Of a stretch of 64,000 bases of DNA, positions 31,655 through 49,214 are shown piece by piece. Under the pieces are notes generated by a model, which was not told the origin of the DNA, ran no database searches, and was given only the letters and a program-made list of their open reading frames with translations. A program made the translations under genes and the position numbers. Origin of the DNA: Thermoplasmata archaeon (GTDB taxonomy: Archaea > Thermoplasmatota > Thermoplasmata > Lutacidiplasmatales > UBA184). Numbering within the stretch: position 1 is the first letter of the stretch; every line of letters starts with the position of its first letter. The stretch covers positions 17,681 to 81,680 of the forward strand of contig DATJNY010000019.1 in assembly GCA_035507575.1 (NCBI GenBank), written 5' to 3'.

Positions 31655-33154
31655 TTAGACGACCTGGTAGAGTCCGACCTCAGCCGTCGCCGACGCCAAC
31701 GCCGCGTTGTTCGCCGGGTCCGTCACGAAGGTGATGAACTCTTGCGCGACGCCGGTGAGGGGCTCCAAGGAGATCAGCTCGAACGGGCGTCCGCCCACAA
31801 ACTGATCCACAGTCTCGCTGGCCGTTAGGCCGGCAGAGATGGTGCCCGAGGTTCCGGTCGTCGGTACCACACCACCGTAGACAAAGCTCGAACTAGGCGT
31901 CGTAACCGGCAAGCCTGCTCCAGAGATGTTCTGTCCCAATCCTAGGAATGGCACGATTCCGATGTTCGCCGTCGTCCGAGCGAGCCCATCCGAGGCGTAG
32001 CCAATGGCGTTGGCGCTCGCAGCGACGTCGGACAGGACTCCGGGATTACCGTTTCCCTGCTGGCCAGTCGGGTAGCTGAACCCACAGTCTGAGAGGAGGT
32101 TGTTGCTCCCGCATCCGCCGTACCCAAGGTTGGAGAATCCCGTGCCAGTCTGGGTCGTCGCAAAGCTGGATGACGACGAGGATGGGCCGCTTCCGTACCC
32201 GAGGACCTTGGCCTCGAACGTCTGTGTGGTTCCGCTTGCGTCAGAGCGCTCGATCGGAACAATCGGGGCAAGTGGTCCAGCGCCCGCCGTCGGAGTCATG
32301 ACGTACGGACCCGCGCAGATTGTCCACCCGCACGGACTAGCGTCCGTCAACGGTGTCACAATGTCGTTCGCCGCTTGTCCAGTGCCGCCCACACTATCAG
32401 CGCCCATCGCTCCAGCGGTGGTGGCACCAACGCCCGTCGGCTCTTCGGTTACCTCTACCCCGCCGTTAGACACGATTGTGTTGTTTACCCCGGCCGGAAT
32501 CTGGTCCCACAGCAGTGGCGTCCCAATCGTCGCCGTCACACCAAGCGTCGCAAAGTGCTCTCCGTTGAAGGTCCCGAGCTGGTGAATCGTTGGCGAGCTC
32601 GAACTGCCAGCTTCATAGATCGCATTCAGAGTGTCTGCACTCATGCTTCGGATGCCGTGGGAGTTCCCGCTCTGGATGACCACATCGACTGCGTCGTAGG
32701 CGACCGTCGTAATTGTAATGGTCGACGCATACTGCGAAGCGCATCCATAGCTGGACTCCAGTGTGGCGACAGTCTGCGGCGTGGAAGAAGCGCCGAGGTT
32801 GATGTTCCCCTCGCAGAGAGCGATCATCCCCGCGCCAGTTCCGCCTTGGTTGTCGCTCACGACGACATCCGAATTGTTCTGCTCGAACCAGCTTACCGCT
32901 AGCGAGCTGAACGGATACACGGACGTGCTCCCGCCGATGGTCAGCGTCGGCTCCGCGTGTTGCGTGCCGATGCCTCCCGTGATGTTCCCTTGCCAAACGA
33001 CGAGCCAGAGATAGAGCGCCGCCGCCGCCGCGACCGCGATCAGGATCAGGATCAGCGTCGCCACGACCGGCGACACCGCCCGAGCCCGATTCTGGCCGCG
33101 CCACGCGCGTCGGAACCGCTGGCCGCGTTCGACTCTCTTCGTTTTCGCGCTCAT
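31655..33154 (-). CDS. PstS-like (phosphate-binding-protein fold) extracellular protein with an archaeal class III (prepilin-like) signal peptide
   Basis: The N-terminus ...RGQNRARA|VSPVVATLILILIAVAAAAALYLW matches the archaeal type IV pilin-like signal consensus (RG/RA then S-P-V-I-A-T-hydrophobic). PstS-like motifs follow (LTIGGSTSVYPF, NQGGTGAG). The C-terminal half is Ser/Thr/Gly-rich with N-glycosylation sequons. Confidence 0.7.
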   Translation of the reverse strand: MSAKTKRVERGQRFRRAWRGQNRARAVSPVVATLILILIAVAAAAALYLWLVVWQGNITGGIGTQHAEPTLTIGGSTSVYPFSSLAVSWFEQNNSDVVVSDNQGGTGAGMIALCEGNINLGASSTPQTVATLESSYGCASQYASTITITTVAYDAVDVVIQSGNSHGIRSMSADTLNAIYEAGSSSSPTIHQLGTFNGEHFATLGVTATIGTPLLWDQIPAGVNNTIVSNGGVEVTEEPTGVGATTAGAMGADSVGGTGQAANDIVTPLTDASPCGWTICAGPYVMTPTAGAGPLAPIVPIERSDASGTTQTFEAKVLGYGSGPSSSSSSFATTQTGTGFSNLGYGGCGSNNLLSDCGFSYPTGQQGNGNPGVLSDVAASANAIGYASDGLARTTANIGIVPFLGLGQNISGAGLPVTTPSSSFVYGGVVPTTGTSGTISAGLTASETVDQFVGGRPFELISLEPLTGVAQEFITFVTDPANNAALASATAEVGLYQVV

Positions 33155-33394
33155 TTCTCTTCGTTTCCCCTCTTTGTTTTCTTGCAGTTGCTGTCTCGCT
33201 GCCGCGGGACCCTCCCTGCACGCATCGAACCGGGGAGTGGGTTGATAGCCGCCCTCGAAGGAGAAGTCGTAGGAAGTCGAACCCTCCGGCTAACTCCGTA
33301 CGAGCGTGGTCCGTCGTGTCGTGAATGGTCACCTTCGAAGAATACGGAAACTCCGGGCGGCCCGTTCATCGCGCGACCTCGTCTTCCCGATTGG

Positions 33395-35176
33395 ATGCCG
33401 AGTCCCAGCGGGGAGTCCGTCGTCGTTCCCGGCCTGAGAGAGCAACTCCCCCTCCCCCTACGGAAGGGGATCCCGGCGGGTGCGAAGCCCAAGGATCGGG
33501 AGACGCTGCTTCGGGAAGGGAAGGATCTCGAGCGCGTACTCGTCCGTCGCGTGGCGGTTCCCGAGAAGGTTTTGATCCAGGCCGAGCTCGGCTACATGCG
33601 CCGCCAGCTCCAGGGAGATCGGCGGAAGGTCGACATCACCTACGGCGTGAACCCCCCGTTCGCGTTCGTTCACATTTCCTTCAATGCGCCGACCGGTGAG
33701 TTCGACTACGATGTCCTCGAGCCGAAGCTGACGGACTCGGAACGATCCCTCGGTTCGGAGATCCGGGCGAAGATGGAGACGATCATGGGGCAGGAGGAGA
33801 TCCCCATCACCGAGGGGGTGGCCCTCGGGGAGTCGCAAGAGCTCAAGGACTACCTCCAAGAAAAGTTCCTGACGGTGCTGGATCTCTACAATATCGACGT
33901 CGCCCCGAAGCGCCAGCCGGTGATGCTGTACTACCTCTTCCGGGAGTTTCTCGGATTCGGGCAGACCGACCCGATCCTCCGCGACCCCTTCCTCGAGGAC
34001 ATCAGCTGCCTCGGGCCGCGCGTCTACATGTACGTGTTCCACCGCGTGTTCGGCTCCCTGCGGACCAACGTGCTCTACTCGAGCGAGATGGAGCTCAACA
34101 AGTACGTTTTCCGGCTCGCGCAGATCGCCGGGAAGCACATCTCCGTCTACCAGCCGATCCTGGACGCCACCCTCCAGGACGGGAGCCGGATCAATCTCAC
34201 GCTCGGGACCGAAGTCACCCGGAAGGGCTCGACGTTCAGCATCCGAAAATTCTCGGCCGATCCGGTATCCCCCATCGACCTGCTGCAGTTCGGCTCGGTG
34301 TCTCCGCACGTGCTCGCCTATTTCTGGAGCCTGATCGAGCACCACCGGTCGATTCTCATCTCGGGCGGAACGGCGGCCGGGAAGACGACGTTCCTCAACG
34401 CGATCTCGATGTTCATCCGACCCGAGGACAAGATCGTCTCGATCGAGGACACACCCGAGATCCAGATCGACCACGAGAACTGGATCCAGTCCGTGGCACG
34501 AACCGGCTACGGCGCCGCTTCGGGAGTGTCGTCGGGGGCATCGGGAGTCTCGGGCCTCTCGTCAACGGCGGGCAAGACGGCCGGGAGCGTGACCCTCTTC
34601 GACTTGCTGGTGGCGGCGCTCCGCCAGAGACCAGAGTACGTGATTGTCGGGGAGGTGCGGGGCGTGGAGGCGTTCACGCTGTTCCAGGCGATTTCGGTCG
34701 GGCACGCCTCGATGTCCACGATTCACGCCGGATCCATCGCGGAGCTCGTCCACCGCGTGGAGAATGAGCCGATGAACATTCCGCGGGTGCTGTTTCAGGC
34801 GCTCGATGCGGTCGCCTTTCCGACGCAGGTCGTCGTGGGACGCAACCGGGTGCGTAGGGTCGTCGGCGTTACCGAGATTCTCGGGGTGGATCCATCCACC
34901 AACGAGCTCCTCACGAACGACGTCTTCCACTGGAGTCCCAGCACCGACTCCTTCCAATTCCTCGGCCGGAGCTTCGTCCTCGAAGAGGTAGGAGAGCGGA
35001 CTGGGAAGAGCATCGACGCCCTGACGGCGGAACTCCAACGCAAGGCGACGTATCTCGATCTGATGACCCGCCTTGGGCTCACGTACTTCCGAGACGTGAG
35101 CCGGGCGATCGGGTCGTATTACGTGGCGCCCGACGACGCGATCCGCGAATTGGAGCGACGGATCACCGCCCGCTGA
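33395..35176 (+). CDS. FlaI/TadA/VirB11-family secretion ATPase (type IV pilus assembly ATPase)
   Basis: Walker A ISGGTAAGKTTFLNAI, Asp/Walker B box IVSIEDTPEIQ and His box GHASMSTIHAGS are present. I prefer the ATG at 33395. A Gly/Ser-rich insertion sits at 34497..34590. Confidence 0.85.
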   Translation: MPSPSGESVVVPGLREQLPLPLRKGIPAGAKPKDRETLLREGKDLERVLVRRVAVPEKVLIQAELGYMRRQLQGDRRKVDITYGVNPPFAFVHISFNAPTGEFDYDVLEPKLTDSERSLGSEIRAKMETIMGQEEIPITEGVALGESQELKDYLQEKFLTVLDLYNIDVAPKRQPVMLYYLFREFLGFGQTDPILRDPFLEDISCLGPRVYMYVFHRVFGSLRTNVLYSSEMELNKYVFRLAQIAGKHISVYQPILDATLQDGSRINLTLGTEVTRKGSTFSIRKFSADPVSPIDLLQFGSVSPHVLAYFWSLIEHHRSILISGGTAAGKTTFLNAISMFIRPEDKIVSIEDTPEIQIDHENWIQSVARTGYGAASGVSSGASGVSGLSSTAGKTAGSVTLFDLLVAALRQRPEYVIVGEVRGVEAFTLFQAISVGHASMSTIHAGSIAELVHRVENEPMNIPRVLFQALDAVAFPTQVVVGRNRVRRVVGVTEILGVDPSTNELLTNDVFHWSPSTDSFQFLGRSFVLEEVGERTGKSIDALTAELQRKATYLDLMTRLGLTYFRDVSRAIGSYYVAPDDAIRELERRITAR

Positions 35177-36134: not shown

Positions 36135-37544
36135 ATGCGAAGCGCGCTGCTTCTCGCGATCGTGCTGGTCCTCGCCCTCGCACCCCTCTCCGCGGCGCTC
36201 GCTCCGGGTGCGGCCGGACAGCCCAGCCCGATCGGCGTGATCGATGTATCGCCGGCCCCCGGGAGCGTCACTCCGTCGACCACTCCTACGCTCTACGTGA
36301 CCTACTCCGATTCCGGCGGCGACATCAACTATGCCGCGGTATACATCAATCAGATCAATTTCACGGGATTCACCGGGTACGAGTTCACCTCGACCAGCGT
36401 CACGTGTCCCGTCCCTTCGATCCTCGCGCTCAAGCCCGGACTCCAAAATGCGAGCCTGGTCCTCGGCGATGGCTCGGGAAACTCGCTCAACTACACCTGG
36501 AATTTCACGGTGAACCCGAATGCTTCCATCTCGGGTCAGCCGATCTTCTCGATCAGTGCCGGGAAGCTTCTCCTCTACATCGGCATCGCGACCGCGGTCG
36601 CCGGCGCGACGTTCTTCGCGTACATCGCCTACCTGAAACAGACCACCCGATTTGCGTTTCGAAAGTACTTCGCCACGCACCCGATCCAACGGTCGTATCT
36701 CGTCCTCTACATCCCGTGCGCCGCCGCCTTTCTCTTCCTCCTCGTCGGCCTCTCGTACGTCACGGGGACCCCCAATCTTCCCGCGTACTCCCTCGATCTC
36801 GTCTTCATCGGTGCAATATTCATTGCGCTCACCGCGTTTGGCATCGACGCGCGCACTCAGTTGGCGCGCAACCGGGCGTACGAGCGGGCGTTCGCGCAAT
36901 TCCTATTCGAAATGTCCGACGCGATGCGGGGAGGGCTCGACCCCGCGAAAGCGATCACCGAACTCGCGAAGACCCAGACGAACATCCTTCAACGCCCCCT
37001 TCGCGTCGCCTCGGATGGCATCCGGATCGGCCGCCCGTTCGAAGCCGTCCTACGCGACATGGCGCGCGGCCTGAAGAGCCCCCTGATTTCTCGGTACGCC
37101 GACCTGATCGCCGAGGCGACGACGGTCGGCGGGGAGACCGCGGTCGTCATCCATCGGGCCGCCAAGGACATGGATGATTTTGTGAAGATCGAAGAGGAGC
37201 GATCCGCCCAGCTCACTCTTCCCGTCGCGGTCATTTACATTGCGTTCGCAGTGCTCGTGGCGGTCTTGGTCGCTCTGCTTTACATCGCGCCGGATCTCGG
37301 CACGCTCAACATCGGTTTCCTCACGTCGGCAGCCAATCCCTTGAAAGGCCCTACCGCGAGCTCGGTGCCAACCCTCGCCCTGAGCACACTCCATGAGCGC
37401 TTTTTCGAGCTTACCATCATCAACTCTCTTGGCACCGGTGCGATTATCGGAGCGTTTACCGAGGGTCGCGCCCGCTATGGAATCGTGCACTCACTAGGGC
37501 TGGTCGCGGCGACCACGGTGTTGTTTCTCTTCATCTTCCCCTGA
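36135..37544 (+). CDS. T2SSF-domain membrane protein (TadC / FlaJ-half-like) with N-terminal signal peptide and an extracellular beta-rich domain
   Basis: Signal peptide (MRSALLLAIVLVLALAPLSAALA), an extracellular domain of about 140 aa with N-X-T sequons, then a TM plus cytoplasmic helical T2SSF-like region plus two further TM segments. Confidence 0.7.
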   Translation: MRSALLLAIVLVLALAPLSAALAPGAAGQPSPIGVIDVSPAPGSVTPSTTPTLYVTYSDSGGDINYAAVYINQINFTGFTGYEFTSTSVTCPVPSILALKPGLQNASLVLGDGSGNSLNYTWNFTVNPNASISGQPIFSISAGKLLLYIGIATAVAGATFFAYIAYLKQTTRFAFRKYFATHPIQRSYLVLYIPCAAAFLFLLVGLSYVTGTPNLPAYSLDLVFIGAIFIALTAFGIDARTQLARNRAYERAFAQFLFEMSDAMRGGLDPAKAITELAKTQTNILQRPLRVASDGIRIGRPFEAVLRDMARGLKSPLISRYADLIAEATTVGGETAVVIHRAAKDMDDFVKIEEERSAQLTLPVAVIYIAFAVLVAVLVALLYIAPDLGTLNIGFLTSAANPLKGPTASSVPTLALSTLHERFFELTIINSLGTGAIIGAFTEGRARYGIVHSLGLVAATTVLFLFIFP

Positions 37545-38411: not shown

Positions 38412-38439
38412 GCCCGCGGGAGCCGGAAGGTCGCTGATA

Positions 38440-38464
38440 GGAGTTCCTTACGAAAATTGCGTAA
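38440..38464. promoter_or_regulatory. Intergenic palindrome TTACG-AAAATTG-CGTAA with an AT-rich core, between the pilin gene and the flaH-like gene
   Basis: Perfect 5-bp inverted arms with a 7-nt AT-rich spacer at 38448..38464. It lies about 30-50 bp from the pilin start on the minus strand and about 65 bp upstream of ATG 38529. Confidence 0.35.
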
Positions 38465-38528
38465 TCGACCGAAGTTCTTCGCACACTCCCAATGGCATCG
38501 TTAAGCGAATACCTCCGTAACGAGTACC

Positions 38529-39158
38529 ATGGGTATTCCGGTCGAGGTTCCGGGCCTCGACACGATCGTTCCTGTGATTCCGGACGGTCACATCGTGGTA
38601 ATCGAGAGCGGGGCGGACGGCGTCAAGAGCTTCCTCTCCCGACGACTCGCGAAGACGGCCCTGCGCGCTGGCCGTTCGGTAACTTTCATCGCGTCCCGGG
38701 ACGGGCCGGAACTTTCCCAATCGCTTCTGATCGGCAACGACCTGCCACCCACGCGGGGGGACGGGTTGCGTGTTGAGGAACGGGACTCGCTGGTCGGTTG
38801 GCAAGACGTCGACTCGCTGCGCGGGGTTCTCGTCGTCGATTCGTTCTCATTCCTTGCGCTGAATCTGCCGCCAAGCCAGCTCTCCGAGCTCCTGCGCCGA
38901 CTGCGGCGGTTGGGCCACGCCCAGGGGCTCACGGTGATCCTTGCCACCGACCGCGGGATGGCGGACGAGAGGTCGGAATCGATCCTCGGACACCTCTCCG
39001 ATGGCTGGATTCAATTCCTTTCGAAGGAAGGGCCCGAGGGCCTGATTCGCTATCTACGCGTACCGAAATGGTCGGACGGAACACTCGTCGACCGCAACAT
39101 CTACTACGAGTATGACGGTAAGCGCCTTGCCATTGACCTTCGGCGCCGAGTGTTGTAA
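38529..39158 (+). CDS. FlaH/ArlH-like KaiC/RecA-superfamily ATPase-fold protein (degenerate Walker A)
   Basis: 209 aa with a RecA-like core: IVVIESGADGVKSFLS (Walker A-like, with Lys-Ser retained) and a hydrophobic strand plus D (VLVVDSFS) as the Walker B position. Size and pattern are those of archaeal FlaH. Confidence 0.6.
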   Translation: MGIPVEVPGLDTIVPVIPDGHIVVIESGADGVKSFLSRRLAKTALRAGRSVTFIASRDGPELSQSLLIGNDLPPTRGDGLRVEERDSLVGWQDVDSLRGVLVVDSFSFLALNLPPSQLSELLRRLRRLGHAQGLTVILATDRGMADERSESILGHLSDGWIQFLSKEGPEGLIRYLRVPKWSDGTLVDRNIYYEYDGKRLAIDLRRRVL

Positions 39159-39170
39159 GGAGGCTCGCTC

Positions 39171-40289
39171 ATGCCCGGATCTTCCTACGATCGATTCGGT
39201 CTCACGAGCAATCCCTTCCGGGACCTCGCCAGCGAGAGCTTGGAGGATGTGGAGATCTACCACGTCAATCTCGACATCGACCGAACCCTCGATACGATCC
39301 GAGAGGAGATCTACGCGAAGGAAAATCGCGCGCTGATCGCGCTCGTGGGCCTGCACGGAGCCGGCAAGACGGAACGGCTCCTGATGGCTCAGGAAGAGGC
39401 GAGGGATCGAGGAGCCTTCAGCGTCTACTTCGACATCACCACCAAGACCACGTGGGTAACACGAGGGCTGGCCGCGTCGTTCCGCAAGTCGGCGAATCTC
39501 GGTGGATTCGCCCAGATCTTCAGCGCCCCGCGGTGGTACCGGGACATCGCTGCCCTCGAGCGGATGAAGGACCGAAACTACGATCCGTTGAAAGCCGGCC
39601 GCGCTCTCGCCGAGGCCCTGAACGCGCACGCGCCCGCGTTTCTACTGCTGAACGACCTGCACAACCTCGCCGCGTCGGATGAACTGGGAATCTTCGCGAA
39701 GGTCCTCCAAGAGATGGTCGACAAAATCAAGCCGGGGGTTCTCGTCATGTTCGGGTGCTTTCCGAGCTTCATGCTGCAACTCGCTACGCATCAGGCTCCC
39801 CTGTCGAGCCGGATCAACCGAACCCTAATTCTCCCCCGCCTGACCCCGGAGGAAGCTTCGTTGCTGCTGGCGAAGAAACTATTGGCCAAACGACTGGTCG
39901 AAGGACTGGATCCGCTCTACCCATTCGATCAAGAGTCCGTGTCGCGACTGAACCAATACGCGTACGGCAACCCCCGAAGGCTGCTCGAGCTCGCGGACGT
40001 TTGCATCGAATTCGCGGTAGCCCACCGCTCCTACCGCATCGACACGGAGATCGTGCGCAGTGCGCTCCTCGAACGTCAAGTCCAGGACCTGAAGTCGGAG
40101 GTCGAGGCGCGATCGGACGGGTGGAAGGAGGACCCCCCGGCGGGAGGGATCGAGCCCCTACCCAACGACACCGTTTACATTGAAGGGAGGGCGCCCGCCG
40201 GAGCAACGATCCCCACAGCGATCACCCCGACCGCTCAGCGCAGTTCCGACCGGACTACTAGTGGTGGGCCGGGGCCGGCTCCCCCATGA
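39171..40289 (+). CDS. AAA+ ATPase, ExeA/GspA-like
   Basis: The N-terminal FGLTSNPF motif is typical of ExeA-like ATPases. Walker A is LVGLHGAGKTERL and Walker B is LLLNDLHNL. The C-terminus is Pro-rich. Confidence 0.6.
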   Translation: MPGSSYDRFGLTSNPFRDLASESLEDVEIYHVNLDIDRTLDTIREEIYAKENRALIALVGLHGAGKTERLLMAQEEARDRGAFSVYFDITTKTTWVTRGLAASFRKSANLGGFAQIFSAPRWYRDIAALERMKDRNYDPLKAGRALAEALNAHAPAFLLLNDLHNLAASDELGIFAKVLQEMVDKIKPGVLVMFGCFPSFMLQLATHQAPLSSRINRTLILPRLTPEEASLLLAKKLLAKRLVEGLDPLYPFDQESVSRLNQYAYGNPRRLLELADVCIEFAVAHRSYRIDTEIVRSALLERQVQDLKSEVEARSDGWKEDPPAGGIEPLPNDTVYIEGRAPAGATIPTAITPTAQRSSDRTTSGGPGPAPP

Positions 40290-41289
40290 CGGCCAGATTG
40301 ATCGCCTGTTCGGCGATGTCGGCGGCGTAGCTCGCGATCCGTCCCAGGCTATCGACCACGACTCCGAGCGCGAGGAGCTCCTCGCCCTTGCGCGTCGCGA
40401 CGCGGTGGAACAGATCGTCGATGAGTCGCTGATGTTGCGGTCGTGCGTCGATCGCTGCGTTCGCCTCCTCGATGTCCCCGGCCATCAAGGCGTGGAAGGC
40501 CCGATCCAGCATCGCGATGGCCGAGGTCTTGGCGATCACAAGGTCCGCTGCGAGCTTCGGTTCGAGCGGTTTCTTGTCGGAGAGCGTGGCGTAGGCCCCC
40601 GCGATGCGGACTGCGTGGTAGCCGATCCGCTCCATGATCTTCGCGACGAGCCCATGGACGAGGATGGCTCCCATCCCCTGTCCGTTGGGGCCTGATGGGA
40701 ACTGGCCCGGGGTGAGGTATCTCTTCGCGACCATCCAGTAGAGGCGGTCGACATCCTGGCTGCGTTGCGTTACGTCATGAGCCAAAGTCGGGTTCCGGCT
40801 CTGCAACGCGAGGATCGAATCCTCGAGCATGGCGCGGGTGATGAGATGCATTCGGCGCAAGCACTTCTCCGCGCTCAGTTCCGACGGGTCGGAGAGGTCT
40901 TGGATGATGAGCTGGTTCCGGTTCTCCTCGATCACCTCAGGGCCGATCACGAGCCGGCAAAAGTCGCGTGCAGATCGCCGGACGAAGGGGCCGCGGTCAG
41001 CCGGAAAACGCACCTCGATGAGACCGTATCCTGAGATGTACGCCCCGATCAGTTTCCGCAGAAGGTGTTCTCGTGCCTCCTCACCCTTCTCCTCGAAGAC
41101 CTTCCGGCGGAGCGGGGGGCGCTCCTCGCGCTTATGGCGCACGGATACGGAGCCGTCAAGCTCGGAATCCACGAACAGCGTGTCACCGGCCTTCAGCCCG
41201 GCATCCAGCACCCAGCGCTTGGGCAAGGAAACGAGATACGTTGAGCCGCCGGCCAGCTGAAGCTTACGGCCCTCCATGCGCAGCACCAT
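40258..41289 (-). CDS. Phosphate-uptake regulator: N-terminal AbrB/SpoVT-type DNA-binding domain fused to tandem PhoU domains
   Basis: N-terminus MEGRKLQLAGGSTYLVSLPKRWV (AbrB swapped-hairpin-like). This is followed by two PhoU-like helical repeats (DxxxD motifs; ...MLEDSILAL..., ...ADIAEQAINLA). Confidence 0.75.
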   Translation of the reverse strand: MVLRMEGRKLQLAGGSTYLVSLPKRWVLDAGLKAGDTLFVDSELDGSVSVRHKREERPPLRRKVFEEKGEEAREHLLRKLIGAYISGYGLIEVRFPADRGPFVRRSARDFCRLVIGPEVIEENRNQLIIQDLSDPSELSAEKCLRRMHLITRAMLEDSILALQSRNPTLAHDVTQRSQDVDRLYWMVAKRYLTPGQFPSGPNGQGMGAILVHGLVAKIMERIGYHAVRIAGAYATLSDKKPLEPKLAADLVIAKTSAIAMLDRAFHALMAGDIEEANAAIDARPQHQRLIDDLFHRVATRKGEELLALGVVVDSLGRIASYAADIAEQAINLAVMGEPAPAHH

Positions 41290-41318
41290 CCCCCGAGGCT
41301 CTACGTAGGCTTAAGCGT

Positions 41319-41338
41319 GAAATAAATAGAAACAATAG
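41319..41338. promoter_or_regulatory. AT-rich TATA-like element (GAAATAAATAGAAACAATAG) in the divergent spacer
   Basis: It lies about 30-50 bp upstream of the regulator start (41289, minus strand). The spacer is otherwise GC-rich. Confidence 0.35.
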
Positions 41339-41454
41339 GGCTATGCTACGAAGTTTACGAGACCCGCGTAGCCTTCGAAGAAAGCCTGAGTGCTCCGAGG
41401 TAAAGTCCGCAGTTCGAAGCAACGTTGATTACTTGATTCGCGTCGATACGGAGC

Positions 41455-42015
41455 ATGCCTGAGGTACCGGCCGAGGGGCTTCGGTTCGAGGAAGTCGATC
41501 CCTCGTCCGCCGACCTCCCCCCCGTCGAGCACCGGCCACCTTCGACCGACGGACGCCGGCCCGGGGTTTATCTGATCGTTATCGTGCTGGTGATCGCGGT
41601 CGCGGTCGGTTCGGTGTATCTCGTGTCGATCACGTTCCACCGTGGGGCGGCGTCCTCCACGACGCATGTGCTCGTGCCGAACGGAACCGCCTACTCGATC
41701 CCGGCCGGCCAGTACGACGCCGTCGCCTTCATCGTCGACGGGAATGCGACGGTGAAGGGGACGATGTACACGGCGTTCGGAATGACGCTTTATCAGATGA
41801 CCCCCGCCCAGTACGAGCATCTCGTCAATACCCTGAATTTCTCGGCCGGCTACGAATGGACCTCCGGACCGATCGGTAACAACACCGTCTATCAACTGAA
41901 TCTCACCGTCCCCGCCGGGCAGTGGGAGTTGGTCTGGGCGAATCCGAACGATCCGTCCACCTTCATCACCACGCTGATCGGGTTCTACTCCGATTTGATC
42001 CTCGAGCCCTCGTGA
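41455..42015 (+). CDS. Hypothetical membrane-anchored extracellular protein (186 aa)
   Basis: N-terminal TM (VYLIVIVLVIAVAVGSVYLV) plus a beta-rich ectodomain with N-X-T sequons. It sits between two PhoU-type genes. Confidence 0.5.
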   Translation: MPEVPAEGLRFEEVDPSSADLPPVEHRPPSTDGRRPGVYLIVIVLVIAVAVGSVYLVSITFHRGAASSTTHVLVPNGTAYSIPAGQYDAVAFIVDGNATVKGTMYTAFGMTLYQMTPAQYEHLVNTLNFSAGYEWTSGPIGNNTVYQLNLTVPAGQWELVWANPNDPSTFITTLIGFYSDLILEPS

Positions 42016-42049: not shown

Positions 42050-42781
42050 CTACCGTTTCGGGCTGGGCGACCAGACGCCCGAGGTCGCCCGATGGGCGAG
42101 GGCTGGGAAATACTCAGGTCGGCGCTCGCCGGTGATCGCATAGATGGCCTTCTCGGCGATCTTGCAGGCGTTGTCCCCGACCCGCTCCAGGTGGCGGCCG
42201 GCCAGAAGAAAGCGGCCGAGACGTTCGGTGGAGGGTCCGCCCTTTTGCAAAAGCTCGAAGACCCGGTTCTGCAGTTGGTCGTACAGCTCATCGACATCGT
42301 CGTCCATGGCGAAGATGGCCCGCGCTTCATCGGCGTCCTCTTTGAGGAACGCCCGCACGGATCGCTGGACCATCAGGCGGGACTGCTCGTCCATCTTTCG
42401 CAACAGCTCGCTGGGGGTTTGGTCGGAGGTGTCGGGCGAGCTCGTCAGGTTCTTCGCGAGGTCGTAGCCGAGCCGCCCGACGCGGTCGACGCAGTTCGCG
42501 ATCTTGAGCACGGCGCCGATCGTCCGGAGATCCGGCCCTTCAGGCTGGAGGATCGCGATCAGGCGGATCGCCTCGGTCTCGATGGCGATGTCGAAGCGGT
42601 CGAGGGGCGAATCGCGGTCGGTCACGCTCTTCGCGAGGGCCGCGTCGCCGGTGATCAGCGCCCGGGTCCCGTCGGCGACCATGCCGACGGCGAGTTCGCT
42701 CATCGCGCCGACATGGGCTTTCAGGACCACGATCGGGTCGTCGGGGGGGTTCGGTTTCGGAGGTTCGGGGGTCGCGTTCAT
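42050..42781 (-). CDS. phoU: PhoU-family phosphate transport system regulator
   Basis: Start at ATG 42781 (MNATPEPP...), overlapping the pstB stop. Two PhoU repeats with conserved D/E residues are present (ETEAIRLIA..., DDVDELYDQL..., ERVGDNACKIAE). Confidence 0.8.
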   Translation of the reverse strand: MNATPEPPKPNPPDDPIVVLKAHVGAMSELAVGMVADGTRALITGDAALAKSVTDRDSPLDRFDIAIETEAIRLIAILQPEGPDLRTIGAVLKIANCVDRVGRLGYDLAKNLTSSPDTSDQTPSELLRKMDEQSRLMVQRSVRAFLKEDADEARAIFAMDDDVDELYDQLQNRVFELLQKGGPSTERLGRFLLAGRHLERVGDNACKIAEKAIYAITGERRPEYFPALAHRATSGVWSPSPKR

Positions 42782-43551
42782 GAGAACCGTCCAGTGATGA
42801 ACTCCGCCGTGAGCGGGTTCCGGGGCCGCTCGAGGACCTCGGCGGTCGGCCCGACCTCGATGAGGTGGCCGGTGTGGAGAACGGCGATGCGGTCGGAGAC
42901 CCGCGCCGCCTGGCTGACGTTGTGCGTGACGAGGACGAGCACGTAGTCCTCCTTGAGCCGTTGCATCGTCGCCTCGACGCGCTGCGTCGCCGCGGGATCG
43001 AGCGCCGACGTCGGCTCGTCCAGCAGCAGGACCCGGGGCTGGGTCGCGAGCGCGCGGGCGATGCACAGGCGCTGCTGTTGTCCTCCCGAGAGCGAGAGCG
43101 CGGGACGGTCCAGGTCATCCTTGACCTCGTCCCACAGGCCGGAGCGGCGGAGCCCCTCCTCGACCTGCCGCTCGATCTCACGGATCTCCTCGCCGACCAG
43201 GCGGAGGCCAAACGCCGCGTTCTCGAAGATCGACGTCGGGAAGACGGTCGGGCGCTGGAAGACCATCCCGATGCGGCGCCGGACCATCACCGGGTTGACG
43301 CGAGGATCGTAGATGTTCTGGCCGAGGTAGAGGATCGCCCCCTCCACCTTCAGACCGGGCGTGAGTTCCACCATGCGGTTCAGGCTGCGCACGAACGTGG
43401 TCTTCCCGCAGCCGGACGGGCCGACGACCGCGGTGAGGCTCGACGGCCCAAAGTCGAGGGAGAGGTCGTCGATGAGCTTCTTCTGCTTCGTGCGCACGGT
43501 CAGGTGCTGCACCGACACGACGGCGCTCCCGTCGTTCGCGGTCGCGTTCAC
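42778..43551 (-). CDS. pstB: Phosphate ABC transporter ATP-binding protein
   Basis: Start at GTG 43551. Walker A GPSGCGKTT, signature LSGGQQQRL, Walker [12 protein letters not shown] and H-loop VTHN are present. The 828-aa containing ORF is an artefact. Confidence 0.9.
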   Translation of the reverse strand: MNATANDGSAVVSVQHLTVRTKQKKLIDDLSLDFGPSSLTAVVGPSGCGKTTFVRSLNRMVELTPGLKVEGAILYLGQNIYDPRVNPVMVRRRIGMVFQRPTVFPTSIFENAAFGLRLVGEEIREIERQVEEGLRRSGLWDEVKDDLDRPALSLSGGQQQRLCIARALATQPRVLLLDEPTSALDPAATQRVEATMQRLKEDYVLVLVTHNVSQAARVSDRIAVLHTGHLIEVGPTAEVLERPRNPLTAEFITGRFS

Positions 43552-44462
43552 TGGTAGAGTCCCTCCAATCGCTTCTGGTATCGGGCCGAGATGACGCGCA
43601 CGAGGATGTTGAGGGCGACGACGACGACCATCAAGAGGAGCGCGGCCTGGAACGCGAGCGAGAGGCTCGGCGATCCCGCGGGCTGGGAGAAGTTCTCCCA
43701 GATCGTCCCGGTCAGGAACGTGACCGGGGAATAGATCGTGGGCGGGAAGATCACCGACTGGGTCGTCGTGAGGACGATCGGGGCCGTTTCGCCGACACCG
43801 ATGGCGAGCGCGAGGAAGACCCCGTTCAGGATCTGGGGGAAGGCGATCGGCGCGCCGACCCGGAGCACGTATTGGTACGGCCGGGCCCCCGAGCCGTAGG
43901 CGGCCTCCCGGATCGGGCGGGGGATCGACGAATAGGCGAGATCGGAGATCCGGAAGATGTAGGGGGTCATGAAGAACGCCAGCGTGACCGACCCCGCGAT
44001 GAACGAAAGCCCCCAGCCGAACGTGATGACGAAGAGGAAGTAGCCGAAGTACCCAAGGACGACCGACGGCGTTCCGACGAGCATGTTCGCCGCCATCCGG
44101 ACCCAGCCGGCGGCCCGCTCGGGCAGGAACTCGGCGGTCGCGACCCCGCCGAAGAGGCCGAGCAGCACCGCGAGGGCGATCGCGAACAGCATGATCGCGG
44201 CGGTCGTCTCGATCGGAACACCGAGCGCGTCCGGGTCGTAGGGGTTCGTGCTCGTGAGCACGGTCCAGGTGAACGTCGGAAGCGCCTGCGACGCGATGTA
44301 GTAGACGAGGTCGAGGATCGGGATGATCGCGACAAGGAAGAGCAGCGGCAGCACCCAGCCGATGGCCTTGTCGAAGCCGAGTCGCCAGCGCGTGCGGAAC
44401 GACCGGTCGAAGAGCAGCTCCTCGGCGGTCTCGGCCCGGAGGTGGTTCACCGCGCTCGCCAT
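43548..44462 (-). CDS. pstA: Phosphate ABC transporter permease
   Basis: 6 TM, with the EAA-like loop region (EAAYGSGARPYQ). The 4-nt start/stop overlap with pstB indicates operon coupling. Confidence 0.85.
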   Translation of the reverse strand: MASAVNHLRAETAEELLFDRSFRTRWRLGFDKAIGWVLPLLFLVAIIPILDLVYYIASQALPTFTWTVLTSTNPYDPDALGVPIETTAAIMLFAIALAVLLGLFGGVATAEFLPERAAGWVRMAANMLVGTPSVVLGYFGYFLFVITFGWGLSFIAGSVTLAFFMTPYIFRISDLAYSSIPRPIREAAYGSGARPYQYVLRVGAPIAFPQILNGVFLALAIGVGETAPIVLTTTQSVIFPPTIYSPVTFLTGTIWENFSQPAGSPSLSLAFQAALLLMVVVVALNILVRVISARYQKRLEGLYQ

Positions 44463-44468
44463 CGACCC

Positions 44469-45413
44469 TCACAACCCCGGGACTTCGTAGGTGACGATGC
44501 GGGCGACGAGCCGGCGGCCGATGATGTTGACCGCGAGCGAGATCGCGAGGAGCACGAGCGCCATCTCCGACAGCGCGGCGAGCCACTGGGTGTTGCCGAA
44601 GGCAGAGTCCAGCGAGAGGAACATCTCCGCGGCCATCGTGCCGGTCGATCCGTAGACGTTGGTGGGGTACGAGGCGACGACGTTCAGCACCATCGCGATC
44701 GCAACGGTCTCCCCGAACGCCCGGCCGAAACCGAGAAAGGCGGCGCTGAGGATCCCGCGGCTCCCATACGGGATCGCCACGTGGCGGACCGTCTCCCAGC
44801 GGGTCGCCCCGAGGCCGAGGCCGGCTTCCCAGAGGTCCCGGGGGACGCTCCGGAGCGCGTCCCGGATCAGGAGGGTCGTGATCGGGAGCGCCATCAGCGT
44901 GAGGATGAAGACCCCGACGGGCAGGCCGAGCCCATCCGCGCGGGGCGCGAGCCCACCGAACCCCGGGATGAACCCGATGTGGGCGTACAACGCGGGATTG
45001 ATCACGCTCCCGAAGAACGGGGCGACGAGCAGGTACCCCCAGATCCCGTAGACGATGCTCGGGATCCCGGCGAGGAGGTCGACGAACGGGTCGAGCCACC
45101 GGGTGATCCATCCCGGCAGGTACGTGGTCGAAGCGATCGCGATGCCGAGACCGATCGCCATGGCGAAGAAGAGCGCCGGGAGGGCGGTCAGGAACGATCC
45201 GGCGATGAACACCGCGATCCCCCACTGCGAGGGCGGATCCCAGATGCTCCCCCAAAAGCCCCAACCGAAATTCGTGAGCTTGCTCGAGATGAGCAGCTCG
45301 ACGACGATCCCCACGAGGATCGCCATCGGGATGAGCGCCGGGACGAACGGGACGATCCGTCCGATCGTCGCGCCGTAGGCCCGGTGTCGCGGAGCGGTCG
45401 GGGTTGCGTTCAT
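44469..45413 (-). CDS. pstC: Phosphate ABC transporter permease
   Basis: 6 TM, with the EAA loop (EAGLGLGATRWETVRHV). Confidence 0.85.
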   Translation of the reverse strand: MNATPTAPRHRAYGATIGRIVPFVPALIPMAILVGIVVELLISSKLTNFGWGFWGSIWDPPSQWGIAVFIAGSFLTALPALFFAMAIGLGIAIASTTYLPGWITRWLDPFVDLLAGIPSIVYGIWGYLLVAPFFGSVINPALYAHIGFIPGFGGLAPRADGLGLPVGVFILTLMALPITTLLIRDALRSVPRDLWEAGLGLGATRWETVRHVAIPYGSRGILSAAFLGFGRAFGETVAIAMVLNVVASYPTNVYGSTGTMAAEMFLSLDSAFGNTQWLAALSEMALVLLAISLAVNIIGRRLVARIVTYEVPGL

Positions 45414-45505
45414 GCTGGGGGAAGAAGGGAAGGAAGGGGTTCCCGGTCCGCGGACGCTACCGGGGCCGAGGGGTCACGCACGATACTCCCGGAACTTCGC
45501 CCGCC

Positions 45506-46804
45506 TCAGCTGATGCCCGAGACGCTCGCCAGCTCCACATTGTCGTAACCGATGACCTCGGGGGTCAGGGGCACGAAGTTGACCCCATTGATCCACGCCG
45601 AGGCCGACCCCGCGGAGTTGTAGTTCCCGTACGTCAGGGCCCAGTGCATGAACGCGACCGTGGCCGCGAGCGCGGCGGCCGTCACGACCGTGCCACCGGG
45701 CAGGGTCTTGATCAGCGCGTACTCGAGGTTGACGATCGGGTAGGCGTCCACGCCCGCCGCGGCGTTCGAGCCGCCGCCACCGTGCACGAGGGTGACCGCG
45801 CCCGCGTAGCTGCCGCCGAGGATCAGGCTGACCGCGAGTCCGTAGGTCGCGAAGTCGAGGCGGGTCAGACCCAGGTTCGCGTCGTTCGAGATCGTGGTGG
45901 TCGTGGGCAGGATGTAGTCGTCCGCCGCCGCTGCGTAGGTCCCGTTCGCGATCGTCGCGTTGTTCCCGACGGCCGCATACTCGAGTCCGGCCGCCGCGGC
46001 GCTCGCTTCGTAGCTGATCCCAATGTACGCGATCGAGCCGACCTGGCCCTGCGCGGTCGAGACCATGCCCGAGTTACCGGTGCCGGTCAGGACGTTCGTG
46101 CCGGTGAAGCCCGATAGGCCGCTCGTCGAAACCGGGTACGGGAACGCCGCATCGGACATGTAGCAAAGCGACGTGAACAGGAACGTATCCCCGCTCGAGT
46201 CGGATCGCTTGACCGGGTAGATCGTCTGGGCCGACATCGCGCTGAGCTCGCCCGCGACCGTCGACGACTGAGCCGCCAGGATCTCCGGGTTGTTCCACGT
46301 TGTGATCGATCCGCTGTAGATCCCCGCGAGGATCGAGCCGTTCAGGTTCAGGTGCACGGCGTTGAGCGGCGCCGGCAGGTTGTAGTAGATCAACTGCGCG
46401 GAGATCGCGACGGGGAAGTTGATCAGGTTCGTGGTGCTCGCGTTCGTCAGGTAGCCGTCCGAGGCCCCGATATTGACGAGACCCAGTTCGGCGCTGCTTT
46501 GGCCCGTACCACTGCCCGTGGACGCCGCGCTAAGGACGACGCCCGAGGCCGTGTAGTTCGGGAACCAGTAGTTCTTGAAGAGCGGGTAGAGCAGGCTCGA
46601 GCCCGTCTCCGTCAAGTTGATCGTGCTCGAGCTCGTGCTCGAGTTCGTGGACTTCCCGAGGAAGTATCCCCCGGCGATGCCCACGATCAAGAGGACGATC
46701 GCGATCGCGACCGCAACGCCCACCGACATGCCGCCGGAGCGGCGCTTCATGGGCGTCGAGAGTTGTTCGGTCTGTGTCGTTCCACCCGTGTTCTGCGCAC
46801 TCAT
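45506..46804 (-). CDS. pstS: Phosphate ABC transporter substrate-binding protein, N-terminal membrane anchor
   Basis: TM anchor (VGVAVAIAIVLLIVGIAGGYFL) and PstS motifs (TGSSLLYPL, ASTGSGTGQ, GASDGYL). It is first in the pstSCAB-phoU operon. Confidence 0.85.
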   Translation of the reverse strand: MSAQNTGGTTQTEQLSTPMKRRSGGMSVGVAVAIAIVLLIVGIAGGYFLGKSTNSSTSSSTINLTETGSSLLYPLFKNYWFPNYTASGVVLSAASTGSGTGQSSAELGLVNIGASDGYLTNASTTNLINFPVAISAQLIYYNLPAPLNAVHLNLNGSILAGIYSGSITTWNNPEILAAQSSTVAGELSAMSAQTIYPVKRSDSSGDTFLFTSLCYMSDAAFPYPVSTSGLSGFTGTNVLTGTGNSGMVSTAQGQVGSIAYIGISYEASAAAAGLEYAAVGNNATIANGTYAAAADDYILPTTTTISNDANLGLTRLDFATYGLAVSLILGGSYAGAVTLVHGGGGSNAAAGVDAYPIVNLEYALIKTLPGGTVVTAAALAATVAFMHWALTYGNYNSAGSASAWINGVNFVPLTPEVIGYDNVELASVSGIS

Positions 46805-47044: not shown

Positions 47045-47860
47045 GTGCGCTTCGGATACGACGGGGCCGGGTTCCGAGGGTGGGCCCGTCAGCCGGGTCA
47101 GCGGACCGTCGAGGGCGAGATCCGCCGCGGTCTGGTGCAGCTCGACGCCATTCGCCCCGCCGATCTCGCAGCGGTGGAAGTCGCCAGCCGTACGGATCGG
47201 GGGGTCAGCGCGCGGGCGAACGCGCTCGTCGTTCCGTCGGAGCTGGACGCCGGGTCCCTGCTCGAGCGGATGAACGCGATCGACCCCGAGATTTTCTTCT
47301 CGGCCACGGTCGAGGTCGACTCGACCTTCCGCGTTCGCGCCGCCCGCCGCCGCATCTACCGGTACTTCGACCCCACTCCGGACCCGGATCTCGCCCGGCG
47401 ACGGGAAGTCGCCGCGTTCTTCGCAGGATCGATCGATGTCCGGTCTCTGGGCCGCGGGATCCCGGGCTCGTCGCCGGTGCGGCGGTGGGTCGAGTCCGTC
47501 ACGGTGCGACCGCTCGGCCGGGGAAGCATGTTCGAGGTCCGCGCCCCCTCGTTCGTCTGGGGGATGGTCCGGAAGATCGTAGGATCGGTGCGCGCGGCCG
47601 AAGCAGGCCGCCTCGACGTCGCGCAGTTGCGCGACGCCCTGGCGGGGCGGGTCCGGCTTTCCCTCCCGATGGCCGAGTCCGATCCGCTCGTCCTCTGGGA
47701 CGTCGAGTATCCGCTGCGCTGGACGGCCCAATGGTCCGGTCGACGTCCGGCACAACTCCGGCACTGGCGAGCGGTCCGGGCGGCCGAATGGGCGCGGGGA
47801 TACGTGCTGCGGTCCCTGGAGGGCGGGTCGCCCCCGCCCCCTCGGGTCAGGGGGCGGTGA
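47045..47860 (+). CDS. truA: tRNA pseudouridine(38-40) synthase
   Basis: GTG start. Conserved motifs FGYDGAGFRGWARQ and catalytic RTDRGVSA are present. Confidence 0.8.
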   Translation: MRFGYDGAGFRGWARQPGQRTVEGEIRRGLVQLDAIRPADLAAVEVASRTDRGVSARANALVVPSELDAGSLLERMNAIDPEIFFSATVEVDSTFRVRAARRRIYRYFDPTPDPDLARRREVAAFFAGSIDVRSLGRGIPGSSPVRRWVESVTVRPLGRGSMFEVRAPSFVWGMVRKIVGSVRAAEAGRLDVAQLRDALAGRVRLSLPMAESDPLVLWDVEYPLRWTAQWSGRRPAQLRHWRAVRAAEWARGYVLRSLEGGSPPPPRVRGR

Positions 47861-49214
47861 GGTTGCCGGCGACGCCCCACACGATGGGATCTCCGTTGAA
47901 AGCCGTGGAGAGCACGTCGCTCGTCGAGAGCCCCGCCGCCCCGACGAAGACCACGCGATCCCCCGCCCCGATGGGCACGTCCGCCACCGTCCATGCCGTC
48001 CCGTTCGCGACGGACGGGTAGCTGTCGAGCCAGACCCCCGTGGAGCTGAGCAGGACCGCGTACCAACCCTGGGGCGGGGCGGGGCAGTTCGAGAGCTCCG
48101 GGTCGGCGGGGCCGCATCCGGCCGCCGCGGGCGCGATCGGCGGCTCGTAGAGCGAGCCGTTCTGGAGCTGCCACCGGACCCAGGACGTTGTCAACGAGGT
48201 CAGGGACACATTGGCCGGCACCGCGGACGTGTAGAAGGATGGTTGGACGGACCACTCCCGATACAATCCGGGAGACGTGGAGTTCCCGGAGAGCGGGGTG
48301 GGCAGAAGCCCTAACTGGTACTCCGAATTATAGCACGAGATCGAACCCTCGAACCACGAATCGCCGTAGCCGCTCGTCGCATTGAGCAGCCAGGTCGTGA
48401 AGTTGAACAAGGGACCATAGTCGCCGGGGAATCCGCAGGACCCGTACGCGACGCTCCACTCCGGGGCTCCGAAGATCTCGGCGGGCAGGAACTCCTGGCC
48501 CGGGAAATAGAGCGCGAAGACGGCGGCCGGGGGGGTGGGCATCTCGATCGGTTGGAGCTCGCCGGGGAACGGCGGTATCGCATTCCAGTTCGCGATCTGC
48601 TGCTGAAGGTGGTGCACCGCGTCGTTCGAGTCGATCTCCTGCCACGGCTGGATGGCGCTGTACGGGTAGGCGTAGAACGGGGAGAGTTGCCGGCAGGGGC
48701 TGTCCGACCCGAGTACGCCGTTCAAGGTGATATTGCCGGCCACCCAGCTCGCGACGAACGTGGGGGTGTACGTCCCGTTGAAGACGAACGTCCACAACGG
48801 TGCCGATCCGCTCGTGTAGACGTCGGACGCCGTCGAATACGGGTACTCGCTTGCGTTCCAGAACGTGAGCGTGCTGACCCCGTTCAGCTGTTGCTCGCAC
48901 GGCGTCCAGTCGTTCGGGGTGAAGAGGGCCCACAGGGCGAGGGGGGGCGACCACGGAGAGTCCGCGGCGGCGCCTTCCGCGAAATCCACGGTCCACGGGT
49001 GCCCGCCGAGGTACGCAAGGTCGCTCGCCACGGCAGTCCACGCGGTGTCGAACGTCGCCCAGCCGGACGGGGGTGGCGGATACGGCGAACCGTTCTGAAA
49101 CAGGCCCACGTTCCCGTACAGGGAAAATCCCGCGACCACCACTACGATCCCGATCGCCACCACGATTCCCAGGATCAGCCCGCGAGGTCGCGGGCGCGGC
49201 AGAGAGGCGGTCAC
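47847..49214 (-). CDS. Hypothetical membrane-anchored extracellular glycoprotein (455 aa)
   Basis: N-terminal TM (LILGIVVAIGIVVVVAGFSL). The ectodomain is Trp/Tyr/Pro-rich with more than 15 N-X-S/T sequons. No enzymatic motif recognised. Confidence 0.5.
   Translation of the reverse strand: MTASLPRPRPRGLILGIVVAIGIVVVVAGFSLYGNVGLFQNGSPYPPPPSGWATFDTAWTAVASDLAYLGGHPWTVDFAEGAAADSPWSPPLALWALFTPNDWTPCEQQLNGVSTLTFWNASEYPYSTASDVYTSGSAPLWTFVFNGTYTPTFVASWVAGNITLNGVLGSDSPCRQLSPFYAYPYSAIQPWQEIDSNDAVHHLQQQIANWNAIPPFPGELQPIEMPTPPAAVFALYFPGQEFLPAEIFGAPEWSVAYGSCGFPGDYGPLFNFTTWLLNATSGYGDSWFEGSISCYNSEYQLGLLPTPLSGNSTSPGLYREWSVQPSFYTSAVPANVSLTSLTTSWVRWQLQNGSLYEPPIAPAAAGCGPADPELSNCPAPPQGWYAVLLSSTGVWLDSYPSVANGTAWTVADVPIGAGDRVVFVGAAGLSTSDVLSTAFNGDPIVWGVAGNLTAP

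Follow-up and report, generated by a model that had tools for sequence, protein, structure and literature searches.

Why should an archaeal pilus locus carry two additional cytoplasmic P-loop proteins? The question is raised by a stretch of 64,000 nucleotides (nt) from a Thermoplasmata archaeon (GenBank assembly GCA_035507575.1, contig DATJNY010000019.1, positions 17,681 to 81,680 of the forward strand), referred to below as the window, in which genes for a KaiC-like protein of 209 amino acids (aa) and an AAA+ protein of 372 aa stand next to each other among genes for a type IV pilus-like machine. The usual account of such machines in archaea names three parts, an ATPase, a platform, and pilins, and the control of their assembly outside the archaellum is little understood. 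An initial annotation of the window had regarded the pair as a FlaH-like protein and an ExeA/GspA-like AAA+ protein, coupled to the ATPase operon of a non-archaellum pilus locus and acting in a regulated or energised assembly step. The evidence presented here indicates that the two proteins are probably regulatory or scaffolding accessory subunits of a lineage-specific pilus-like machine that would display a PstS protein with a pilin-type signal. The pair and its immediate surroundings consist of the following features:

38412-38528, no strand: divergent intergenic region of 117 nt between the PKD-pilin gene and the KaiC-like gene; the adjacency is kept in both gene-order types
38529-39158, plus strand: KaiC/RecA-fold single-domain protein, 209 aa, Pfam KaiC, with the degenerate P-loop E-S-G-A-D-G-V-K-S
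39159-39170, plus strand: intercistronic spacer of 12 nt with a GGAGG ribosome-binding site; the median over 73 loci is ~14 nt
39171-40289, plus strand: AAA+ protein, 372 aa, with Walker A GLHGAGKT and Walker B LLLND; Pfam AAA_22, Orc1/Cdc6 by Foldseek

The window is archaeal DNA with a guanine-cytosine (GC) content of 57-75%. Both open reading frames (ORFs) of the pair were confirmed on the plus strand, the first with 'IESGADGVKS' at residues 25-34 and the second with the N-terminus MPGSSYDRFGLTSNPFRDL and 'GLHGAGKT' at residues 60-67. They represent conserved protein families rather than chance ORFs: their codon-position GC is that of coding sequence in a genome of 61-70% GC (GC3 0.75-0.77 vs. 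GC2 0.45), 318 homologues of the KaiC-like protein and 290 of the AAA+ protein were found at E<=1e-3, most of them in Thermoplasmata metagenome-assembled genomes (MAGs), and two NCBI proteins with adjacent tags (VMC82_01700/01705) from a Thermoplasmata MAG match them at 100% identity. All sequences related to the pair come from MAGs. The stop codon of the KaiC-like ORF (TAA, 39156-39158) is followed by GGAGGCTCGCTC and then by the ATG of the AAA+ ORF; because the spacer is only 12 nt long and contains GGAGG, the two genes form one bicistronic unit. This unit is separated from the ATPase transcription unit by a pilin gene on the opposite strand, and the coupling to the pilus ATPase operon that had been proposed therefore holds as conserved synteny and not as co-transcription.

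Searches of the PDB with the two sequences and with the profiles of their families gave marginal matches only, and fold comparison was used instead. The 209-aa protein matches Pfam KaiC at 29.4 bits (cut-off 26.6). ArlH is its best NCBIfam match and the commonest one across the family (26/38 members, best E 2.9e-8), but the scores lie far below the family cut-offs (NF052589 ArlH, 30.5 vs. 215 bits; PRK06067, 19.2 vs. 194; PRK08533, 17.9 vs. 215). The AlphaFold2 (AF2) model (predicted local distance difference test, pLDDT, 74; predicted template modelling score, pTM, 0.78) retrieved RecA, the KaiC-like PH0284, FlaH (4wia), SSO2452, and KaiC in Foldseek at E 1e-9 to 5e-11; FlaH was matched at E 1.8e-9 (TM 0.68/0.64), with RecA and PH0284 level with it or higher. 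Thus, the description of a FlaH-sized, single-domain RecA/KaiC fold with an altered Walker A is borne out, and the protein is outside the ArlH family. DUF7125 (PF23442), which is listed in precomputed annotations of homologues, remained below its cut-off in all scans (19.7 vs. 29.1 bits), and a literature search on DUF7125 found nothing.

The P-loop is altered throughout the family. Among 73 orthologues it reads E-[SG]-G-x-D-x-[AVIP]-K-[STGNA], in which Gly precedes Lys in none and the internal Asp is near-invariant. The site of the catalytic Glu pair of KaiC is occupied by 'S-R-[DVA]' ('SRD' in the window), while the Walker B 'hhhhDS' is retained ('VVDS' in the window). In the deep low-GC branches L084 and L086, even the P-loop Lys is gone ('GSIDPITT').

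With regard to the AAA+ protein, Pfam AAA_22 reaches 22.3 bits for the window protein, where the cut-off is 27, and is matched at E<=0.01 by 39/41 family members; weaker Pfam matches of the family are ATPase_2, nSTAND5, AAA_16, NACHT, and BrxC_BrxD. In the AF2 model (pLDDT 78.5), the AAA+ base is joined to a lid of four helices, and a tail rich in Pro and Ala (~residues 320-372) is disordered. The top Foldseek match of the model is Sulfolobus solfataricus Orc1/Cdc6 (2qby_A, 3.5e-10, TM 0.49), followed by 2v1u, 1fnn, 1w5t, and other ORC/Cdc6 proteins, and then by HslU, RuvB, and TnsC. A winged helix is absent: neither WHD_Cdc6 nor Cdc6_lid is matched in Pfam, and the model passes from the lid helix into disorder, whereas a true Cdc6 at locus L081, taken for comparison, shows both domains. 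Neither a membrane segment nor a peptidoglycan-binding domain was found by Pfam or in the model. Since all three parts are lacking, the protein is neither an Orc1/Cdc6 nor an ExeA. Many homologues are named 'ExeA' in the COG-based JGI annotation; on the other hand, no ExeA-type NCBIfam model is matched in the family (pepcterm_ATPase in 2/41 members only, at E 0.003), and a probability of 3% was obtained with hhalign for E. coli K-12 GspA, although that protein is a poor template, being a divergent homologue of ExeA that lacks the FGL motif at its N-terminus. 'ExeA-like' is therefore valid only at the level of the AAA_22 assemblage, together with an N-terminal G-L-x-x-N-P-F peptide, a kind of start that is presumably shared by ExeA-type proteins.

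This N-terminal peptide is invariant (Y-x-R-[YF]-G-L-x-x-N-P-F-R-x-L-x-S-E) and still present in very distant relatives. Invariant positions are L11, N14, P15, F16, R17, L19, S21, and E22, the Walker A motif, N161-D162, R214/R217 (SRINR), and R269 in 'GNPRR'; R270 is near-invariant. The 'SRxxR' box and the sensor-2-like 'GNPRR' motif resemble those of Cdc6, and the hhhhDD/ND Walker B is of a kind known from STAND switches. At Walker B, all 119 close members have N-D, and the pilus-linked representatives have either N-D or D-D. A canonical D-E occurs only in relatives beyond ~E 1e-35, and neither of the two that were checked (P0321; P0334, from Korarchaeota) has KaiC-like or pilus neighbours. 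A profile search of 1.84 billion representative proteins yielded only 296 matches at E<=1e-3 and 86 at E<=1e-30; because the family is small and sharply delimited, it offers a clean marker for the system in metagenomes. In both proteins, the folds and many invariant surface residues have been kept while catalytic residues were lost specifically in the pilus-linked clade, and regulation or scaffolding is therefore favoured over energising. Of the two functions originally suggested for the assembly step, regulation is thus the better reading, and energising is disfavoured by motifs that are degraded family-wide in both proteins. That catalytic residues were lost in both proteins in a coordinated way points to a role in sensing nucleotides rather than in driving a motor.

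The machine to which the pair would belong is encoded on both sides of it. The surrounding features are:

31655-33154, minus strand: PstS-like substrate-binding protein, 499 aa, PBP_like_2, with the class III (pilin-type) signal peptide RAVSPVVATLILILIAVAAAAALYLW
33395-35176, plus strand: secretion ATPase of the type IV pilus/FlaI type, 593 aa with the ATG at 33395, Pfam T2SSE 111 bits
35180-36130, plus strand: N-terminal half of the platform (FlaJ/TadC-like), T2SSF 47 bits, with weak NCBIfam matches to ArlJ, UpsF, and BasF
36135-37544, plus strand: C-terminal half of the platform with an N-terminal extracellular extension, T2SSF 50.8 bits
37584-38411, minus strand: pilin-like protein with the class III signal RGLAEIVGTLMLILIV and a PKD/Ig-like domain, divergent from the KaiC-like gene
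40258-41289, minus strand: AbrB/SpoVT-type DNA-binding domain fused to PhoU domains (PhoU 72 bits, MazE_antitoxin/AbrB-type 25.9 bits)
41455-42015, plus strand: membrane-anchored protein of 186 aa without a Pfam or NCBIfam match
42050-46804, minus strand: canonical pstS-pstC-pstA-pstB-phoU operon (PhoU 123 bits, PBP_like_2 57 bits)
genes of this operon, minus strand: pstS 45506-46804, pstC 44469-45413, pstA 43548-44462, pstB 42778-43551, phoU 42050-42781

The ATPase scores 384 bits against the NCBIfam model of FlaI (cut-off 550) and 164.8 bits against that of BasE (cut-off 1000), and its best PDB match is Archaeoglobus fulgidus GspE2 (2oap, 2.7e-116), followed by Sulfolobus acidocaldarius FlaI (8e-82). 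Neither an archaellin nor ArlF/G was matched in Pfam or NCBIfam among nine locus proteins. Because such matches are missing and the ATPase is nearer to GspE2 than to FlaI, the locus is of a non-archaellum, type IV pilus-like kind, as had been supposed. A split platform was also reported in the CdiP pilus of Thermoplasmatales (PMC12448462). The pilin-like protein matches K319L-like_PKD (26.7 bits), Pilin_N (18.1 bits), and arch_flag_Nterm (19.4 bits), and its N-terminal motif is found in 50/71 orthologues. The gene for the AbrB-PhoU fusion, a putative phosphate-responsive regulator, is convergent with the AAA+ gene and overlaps it by 32 nt.

The arrangement was followed by a scan of one genome per GTDB species, which gave 79 loci from MAGs of Thermoplasmata, Thermoplasmatota, and Methanomassiliicoccales. 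The ORFs of these loci were searched with the window proteins, and the full-flank set consisted of the 37 loci that had 6.5 kb or more on either side. The KaiC-like gene stands directly upstream of the AAA+ gene, on the same strand, at 73 of the 75 loci with enough upstream DNA (median gap ~14 nt). Across the full-flank set, the ATPase and the two platform halves (TadC1 and TadC2) are each present at 37/37 loci, the PKD-pilin at 36/37, and the pilin-type PstS at 33/37, while AbrB-PhoU occurs at 31/37, Pst transporter genes (within 10 kb) at 22/37, and the 186-aa protein at 16/37. In loci of the Methanomassiliicoccales type, the order is rearranged to the PKD-pilin (minus), the KaiC-like and AAA+ genes (plus), TadC2, TadC1, and ATPase (minus), and the pilin-type PstS with a fused PstCA (plus); the same parts stay linked despite this rearrangement. 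The linkage also holds for deep-branch members (L086, L091, L092, and L093; profile E 1e-41 to 1e-63). The GC content is 32-34% in L084 and L086, the two deep-branch loci for which it was computed. In the deep-branch members, a KaiC-like gene of 201-205 aa lies directly upstream of the AAA+ gene and, where the contig permits, is accompanied by T2SSE, two T2SSF proteins, a PBP_like_2 protein bearing a class III signal, and a fused PstCA. At L090, a Peptidase_A24 prepilin peptidase gene follows right after the pair, with no pst genes in view. Since pilus synteny is near-universal across divergent genomes and rearrangements, the pair is a core part of the machine and no passenger. Throughout a whole archaeal lineage, these two additional P-loop proteins of the cytoplasm are found with the same constancy as the core components.

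Several MAGs contain two loci of the module: L012 and L031 (SMAG_U12189), L008 and L038 (AcS1-45), L050 and L078 (MFD09222.bin.2.161), L052 and L071 (AcS4-93), and L010 and L070 (JOPF058). Own pst genes are visible in at least one copy of SMAG_U12189 and AcS1-45, and in SMAG_U12189 each copy has a pst operon of its own. The module seems to duplicate as a whole unit.

The AAA+ family shows some variation at its margins. In low-GC deep branches (L086 8001-10094; P0284, P0294, and P0298), the protein is 640-785 aa long, with an acidic linker that is long and of low complexity and, at the C-terminus, a Zn-ribbon of the TFIIB type ('RCPDCGKDF...CPFCGFQ'), and the divergent neighbour is a giant PKD/CLIPPER surface protein in place of the small PKD-pilin. 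Non-pilus relatives (L081 5654-9137 and L087 5650-7207) combine a G-L-x-x-N-P-F-type peptide with a canonical D-E Walker B. The L081 relative, which clusters with a Korarchaeota protein, adjoins Orc1/Cdc6 and RFC genes, and the L087 relative adjoins a DUF4443 gene; these non-pilus relatives may form an uncharacterised archaeal AAA+ family with C-terminal helix-turn-helix (HTH) domains.

The most distinctive context of the pair, and one that the initial annotation had passed over, is that it is firmly linked to Pst transport genes and to the gene of a PstS that bears a pilin signal. The PstS-like protein (31655-33154), whose gene is divergent from the pilus ATPase operon, matches PBP_like_2 at 42.5 bits and arch_flag_Nterm at 29.1 bits (cut-off 20). 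A class III signal is present in 37/48 orthologous pilin-type PstS ORF pieces versus 0/26 operon-type PstS, and the PstS of the canonical operon in the window (45506-46804) likewise lacks it. A pilin-type signal on a substrate-binding protein is a bindosome-like feature, which is also seen at the low-GC locus L086. Its presence on the locus PstS and its absence from the operon PstS suggest a phosphate 'bindosome' or a PstS-bearing filament. Literature searches for a PstS with a pilin signal, a phosphate bindosome, or Pst-linked pili of Thermoplasmatota found none, and the KaiC-like/AAA+ pair and the Pst link appear to be undescribed so far. What appears to be new here is an archaeal type IV pilus or bindosome-like system with a catalytically degenerate KaiC-like/AAA+ pair and a hard link to phosphate uptake. 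The linkage suggests that abundant Thermoplasmata of soil, peat, and sediment acquire phosphate by a pilus-like machine, and the idea of the bindosome would thereby be extended to another phylum and another nutrient.

How might such a machine work? Its parts would be an ATPase of the FlaI/PilB type, a FlaJ/TadC platform in two halves, a PKD-pilin from which a filament or stalk is built, and a PstS-type binding protein with a pilin-type signal, and it appears to be inherited, together with the Pst phosphate ABC transporter, in Thermoplasmata, in the Methanomassiliicoccales type, and in related low-GC Thermoplasmatota. The pilin-type PstS is the probable cargo, which would be inserted or displayed at the surface, alone or on a PKD-pilin stalk, in a manner resembling the bindosome of Sulfolobus. 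ORC- and STAND-type switches bind ATP, oligomerise, and hydrolyse it slowly if at all. The AAA+ protein may be a nucleotide-binding switch of this kind, with its Walker A intact, the Walker B Glu lost, and the arginine motifs kept, and it would probably oligomerise in the ATP state. Its N-terminal 'YGLxxNPFRxLxSE' peptide looks like a docking motif because it is invariant yet structurally unconstrained (low pLDDT at residues 19-31), and it probably docks a partner. Judging from its motifs, the KaiC-like protein has probably lost catalytic competence. By analogy, it would most likely dock on the hexameric FlaI/PilB-type ATPase in a partner role like that of ArlH, whose binding target is the motor ATPase hexamer (PMC4858521, PMC12448462). 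Together, the two proteins would gate or scaffold assembly and supply no energy.

Several points weigh against this proposal. Physical contact with the ATPase is what we infer, and confidence in the AF2 model of the KaiC-like protein is moderate (pLDDT 74). Most KaiC-like members retain the Lys and Ser of the P-loop and the Walker A of the AAA+ protein is intact, so some nucleotide turnover is possible. The PstS-like protein scores 67 bits against the NCBIfam PstS model, below the cut-off of 206, and we therefore infer its phosphate ligand from family and context. In addition, the pair is transcribed apart from the ATPase operon and adjoins AbrB-PhoU at 31/37 loci, which would allow a purely regulatory role off the machine.

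A more specific version of the accessory-subunit proposal may be entertained, if only tentatively: the machine would be a phosphate-scavenging 'PstS pilus' or bindosome that is gated by the catalytically dead KaiC-like protein and the ORC/STAND-like switch, which would read the nucleotide or phosphate status (possibly via partners with PhoU domains) and pass it on to the ATPase of the pilus. If this were true, the pair would be a control module of type IV filament machines that acts in the cytoplasm and belongs to a new class, and the locus would hold the first bindosome-type system outside Sulfolobales with the transporter hard-wired to it.

Among the alternatives, the one that survives best places the pair entirely off the machine, as a phosphate-regulon module in which a KaiC-like hub and an AAA+ output would act with AbrB-PhoU and PhoU to control how pst and pilus genes are expressed. 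In favour of this reading, a separate promoter region precedes the pair, AbrB-PhoU is the frequent neighbour noted above, pst genes lie within 10 kb at more than half of the full-flank loci (22/37), and C-terminal HTH domains in distant AAA+ relatives and the Zn-ribbon of deep-branch members would suit such an output. KaiC-family ATPases with a second component have also been proposed as regulators at archaeal pilus loci (PMC4858521). However, the window AAA+ protein has no DNA-binding domain, the pilus genes (37/37) are more constant neighbours than the PhoU/Pst genes, rearranged loci keep the pair with pilin and platform genes while AbrB-PhoU moves off, and at L090 the neighbour of the pair is a prepilin peptidase gene, while pst genes are not seen there. 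We consider this alternative plausible but rather unlikely. A shared operator in the divergent promoter regions was sought among 34-68 orthologous regions and none was convincing (the best 8-mer occurs in 12/68). CGAAG..CTTCG repeats lie upstream of the KaiC-like gene, and their conservation in orthologous loci is unconvincing. They are related to the 11-mer CCTTCGAAGAA, which contains the palindrome TTCGAA and occurs in two intergenic regions of the window, 33155-33394 (between the PstS-pilin and ATPase genes) and 41290-41454 (between AbrB-PhoU and the 186-aa gene).

It is far less probable that a genuine FlaH/ArlH and a genuine ExeA/GspA add an energy-consuming step to assembly. ArlH is indeed the top named hidden Markov model, FlaH 4wia is among the fold matches, the COG-based labels name many homologues 'ExeA', and the N-terminal G-L-x-x-N-P-F motif may be of the ExeA kind; yet ArlH is matched at 30 of the 215 bits needed, the locus has no archaellin, ArlF, or ArlG, and the KaiC-like Walker A is degenerate, sometimes without its Lys. 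The Walker A of ArlH is said to be required for nucleotide-dependent binding to the motor ATPase (a result attributed to Chaudhury, 2016). On the side of ExeA, the lack of an NCBIfam match, of transmembrane and peptidoglycan-binding domains, and of a secretin is joined by the loss of the Walker B Glu in the pilus-linked clade. Membership in ArlH or ExeA is largely refuted by these failed family tests. The initial annotation had named replication-type proteins without pilus association as its counter-case; Orc1/Cdc6 is nearest by fold, yet the pilus association is very strong and the decisive part of that case does not apply.

The least probable alternative is an unrelated DNA-metabolism or defence module near pilus genes (an Orc1/Cdc6- or BrxD-like ATPase with a RecA/RadB-like protein), for which the top fold matches to Orc1/Cdc6 and RecA, BrxC_BrxD matches of distant relatives, and the only plasmid tblastn matches, to haloarchaeal 'BREX system ATP-binding domain' proteins (one inspected match adjoins tRNA-guanine transglycosylase and restriction-endonuclease genes), could be cited, and against which stand the absence of a winged helix, BrxC_BrxD matches in only 4/41 members of the AAA+ family (E ~1e-3), PADLOC searches with no hit for the AAA+ protein and one 13.5-bit noise match for the KaiC-like protein, the marginal nature of the plasmid matches (E 0.03-1, 33% coverage), and a near-universal pilus synteny that is not expected of a passenger.

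The machine with its two accessory proteins resembles several known systems in part. Like ArlH/FlaH, the KaiC-like protein is a single-domain RecA/KaiC fold of ~210-230 aa, its gene adjoins those of an ATPase of the FlaI type and a platform of the FlaJ type, and it lacks the classical catalytic set-up; for ArlH, binding to the ATPase hexamer is the presumed mode of action (PMC12448462). Unlike at archaellum loci, archaellins, ArlF/G, and ArlCDE/X are absent here, the P-loop has no Gly before Lys, carries the conserved Asp, and has lost its Lys in deep branches, and the protein is always paired with an AAA+ protein, a pairing that is not known for ArlH. A KaiC-type protein beside a non-archaellum pilus is in itself less unusual than the initial annotation implied: Makarova, Koonin, and Albers (2016) reported KaiC-family ATPases in or near non-archaellum pilus operons and proposed them to be regulators, sometimes with a second component (PMC4858521), so the KaiC-pilus association in general is already known. 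However, the KaiC arCOGs of that survey are larger canonical forms, unlike the 209-aa protein, and an AAA+/ExeA-like partner, phosphate, PstS, and Thermoplasmata systems are not mentioned in it (PMC4858521). It also found no secretion ATPase in the Methanomassiliicoccus genomes of that time (PMC4858521).

The AAA+ protein shares its base and helical lid with Orc1/Cdc6, from which it differs in having no winged-helix DNA-binding domain. ExeA differs in its membrane anchor, its peptidoglycan-binding domain, its ExeB partner, and its secretin, all of which are missing here; genes for a secretin or a GspB-like protein were found at none of the loci surveyed. The AAA+ protein likewise has no sensor repeats as in STAND proteins and no defence context as for BrxD. 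As for the bindosome of Sulfolobus/Saccharolobus, it involves substrate-binding proteins of ABC transporters with class III signal peptides (PMC3047682). The present system resembles it (BasEF with BasABC) in combining a pilus-type ATPase and platform with substrate-binding proteins that bear such signals. It differs in family scores (BasE, 164.8 vs. 1000 bits; BasF, 29.9 vs. 1300 bits), in having a PstS-type phosphate binder rather than the sugar binders of Bas, in phylum, in the KaiC-like/AAA+ pair that Bas lacks, and in the physical linkage of the transporter genes.

Some other features of the window deserve mention. Two membrane-anchored proteins have no family assignment, the one of 186 aa (41455-42015, plus strand), which could be another extracellular component, and one of 455 aa (47847-49214, minus strand). 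A stretch at 22000-28000 has a GC content of 57-61%, compared with ~70% on both flanks, and is bordered by a 100-nt tRNA match (27768-27867, minus strand), long enough to contain an intron. Judged by eye, this stretch encodes a secreted protein of 710 aa (23249-25381), whose C-terminus resembles a Hint/intein-type domain, and a protein of 497 aa (25631-27124, minus strand) with YVTN-type beta-propeller-like repeats, and it may be a horizontally acquired island.

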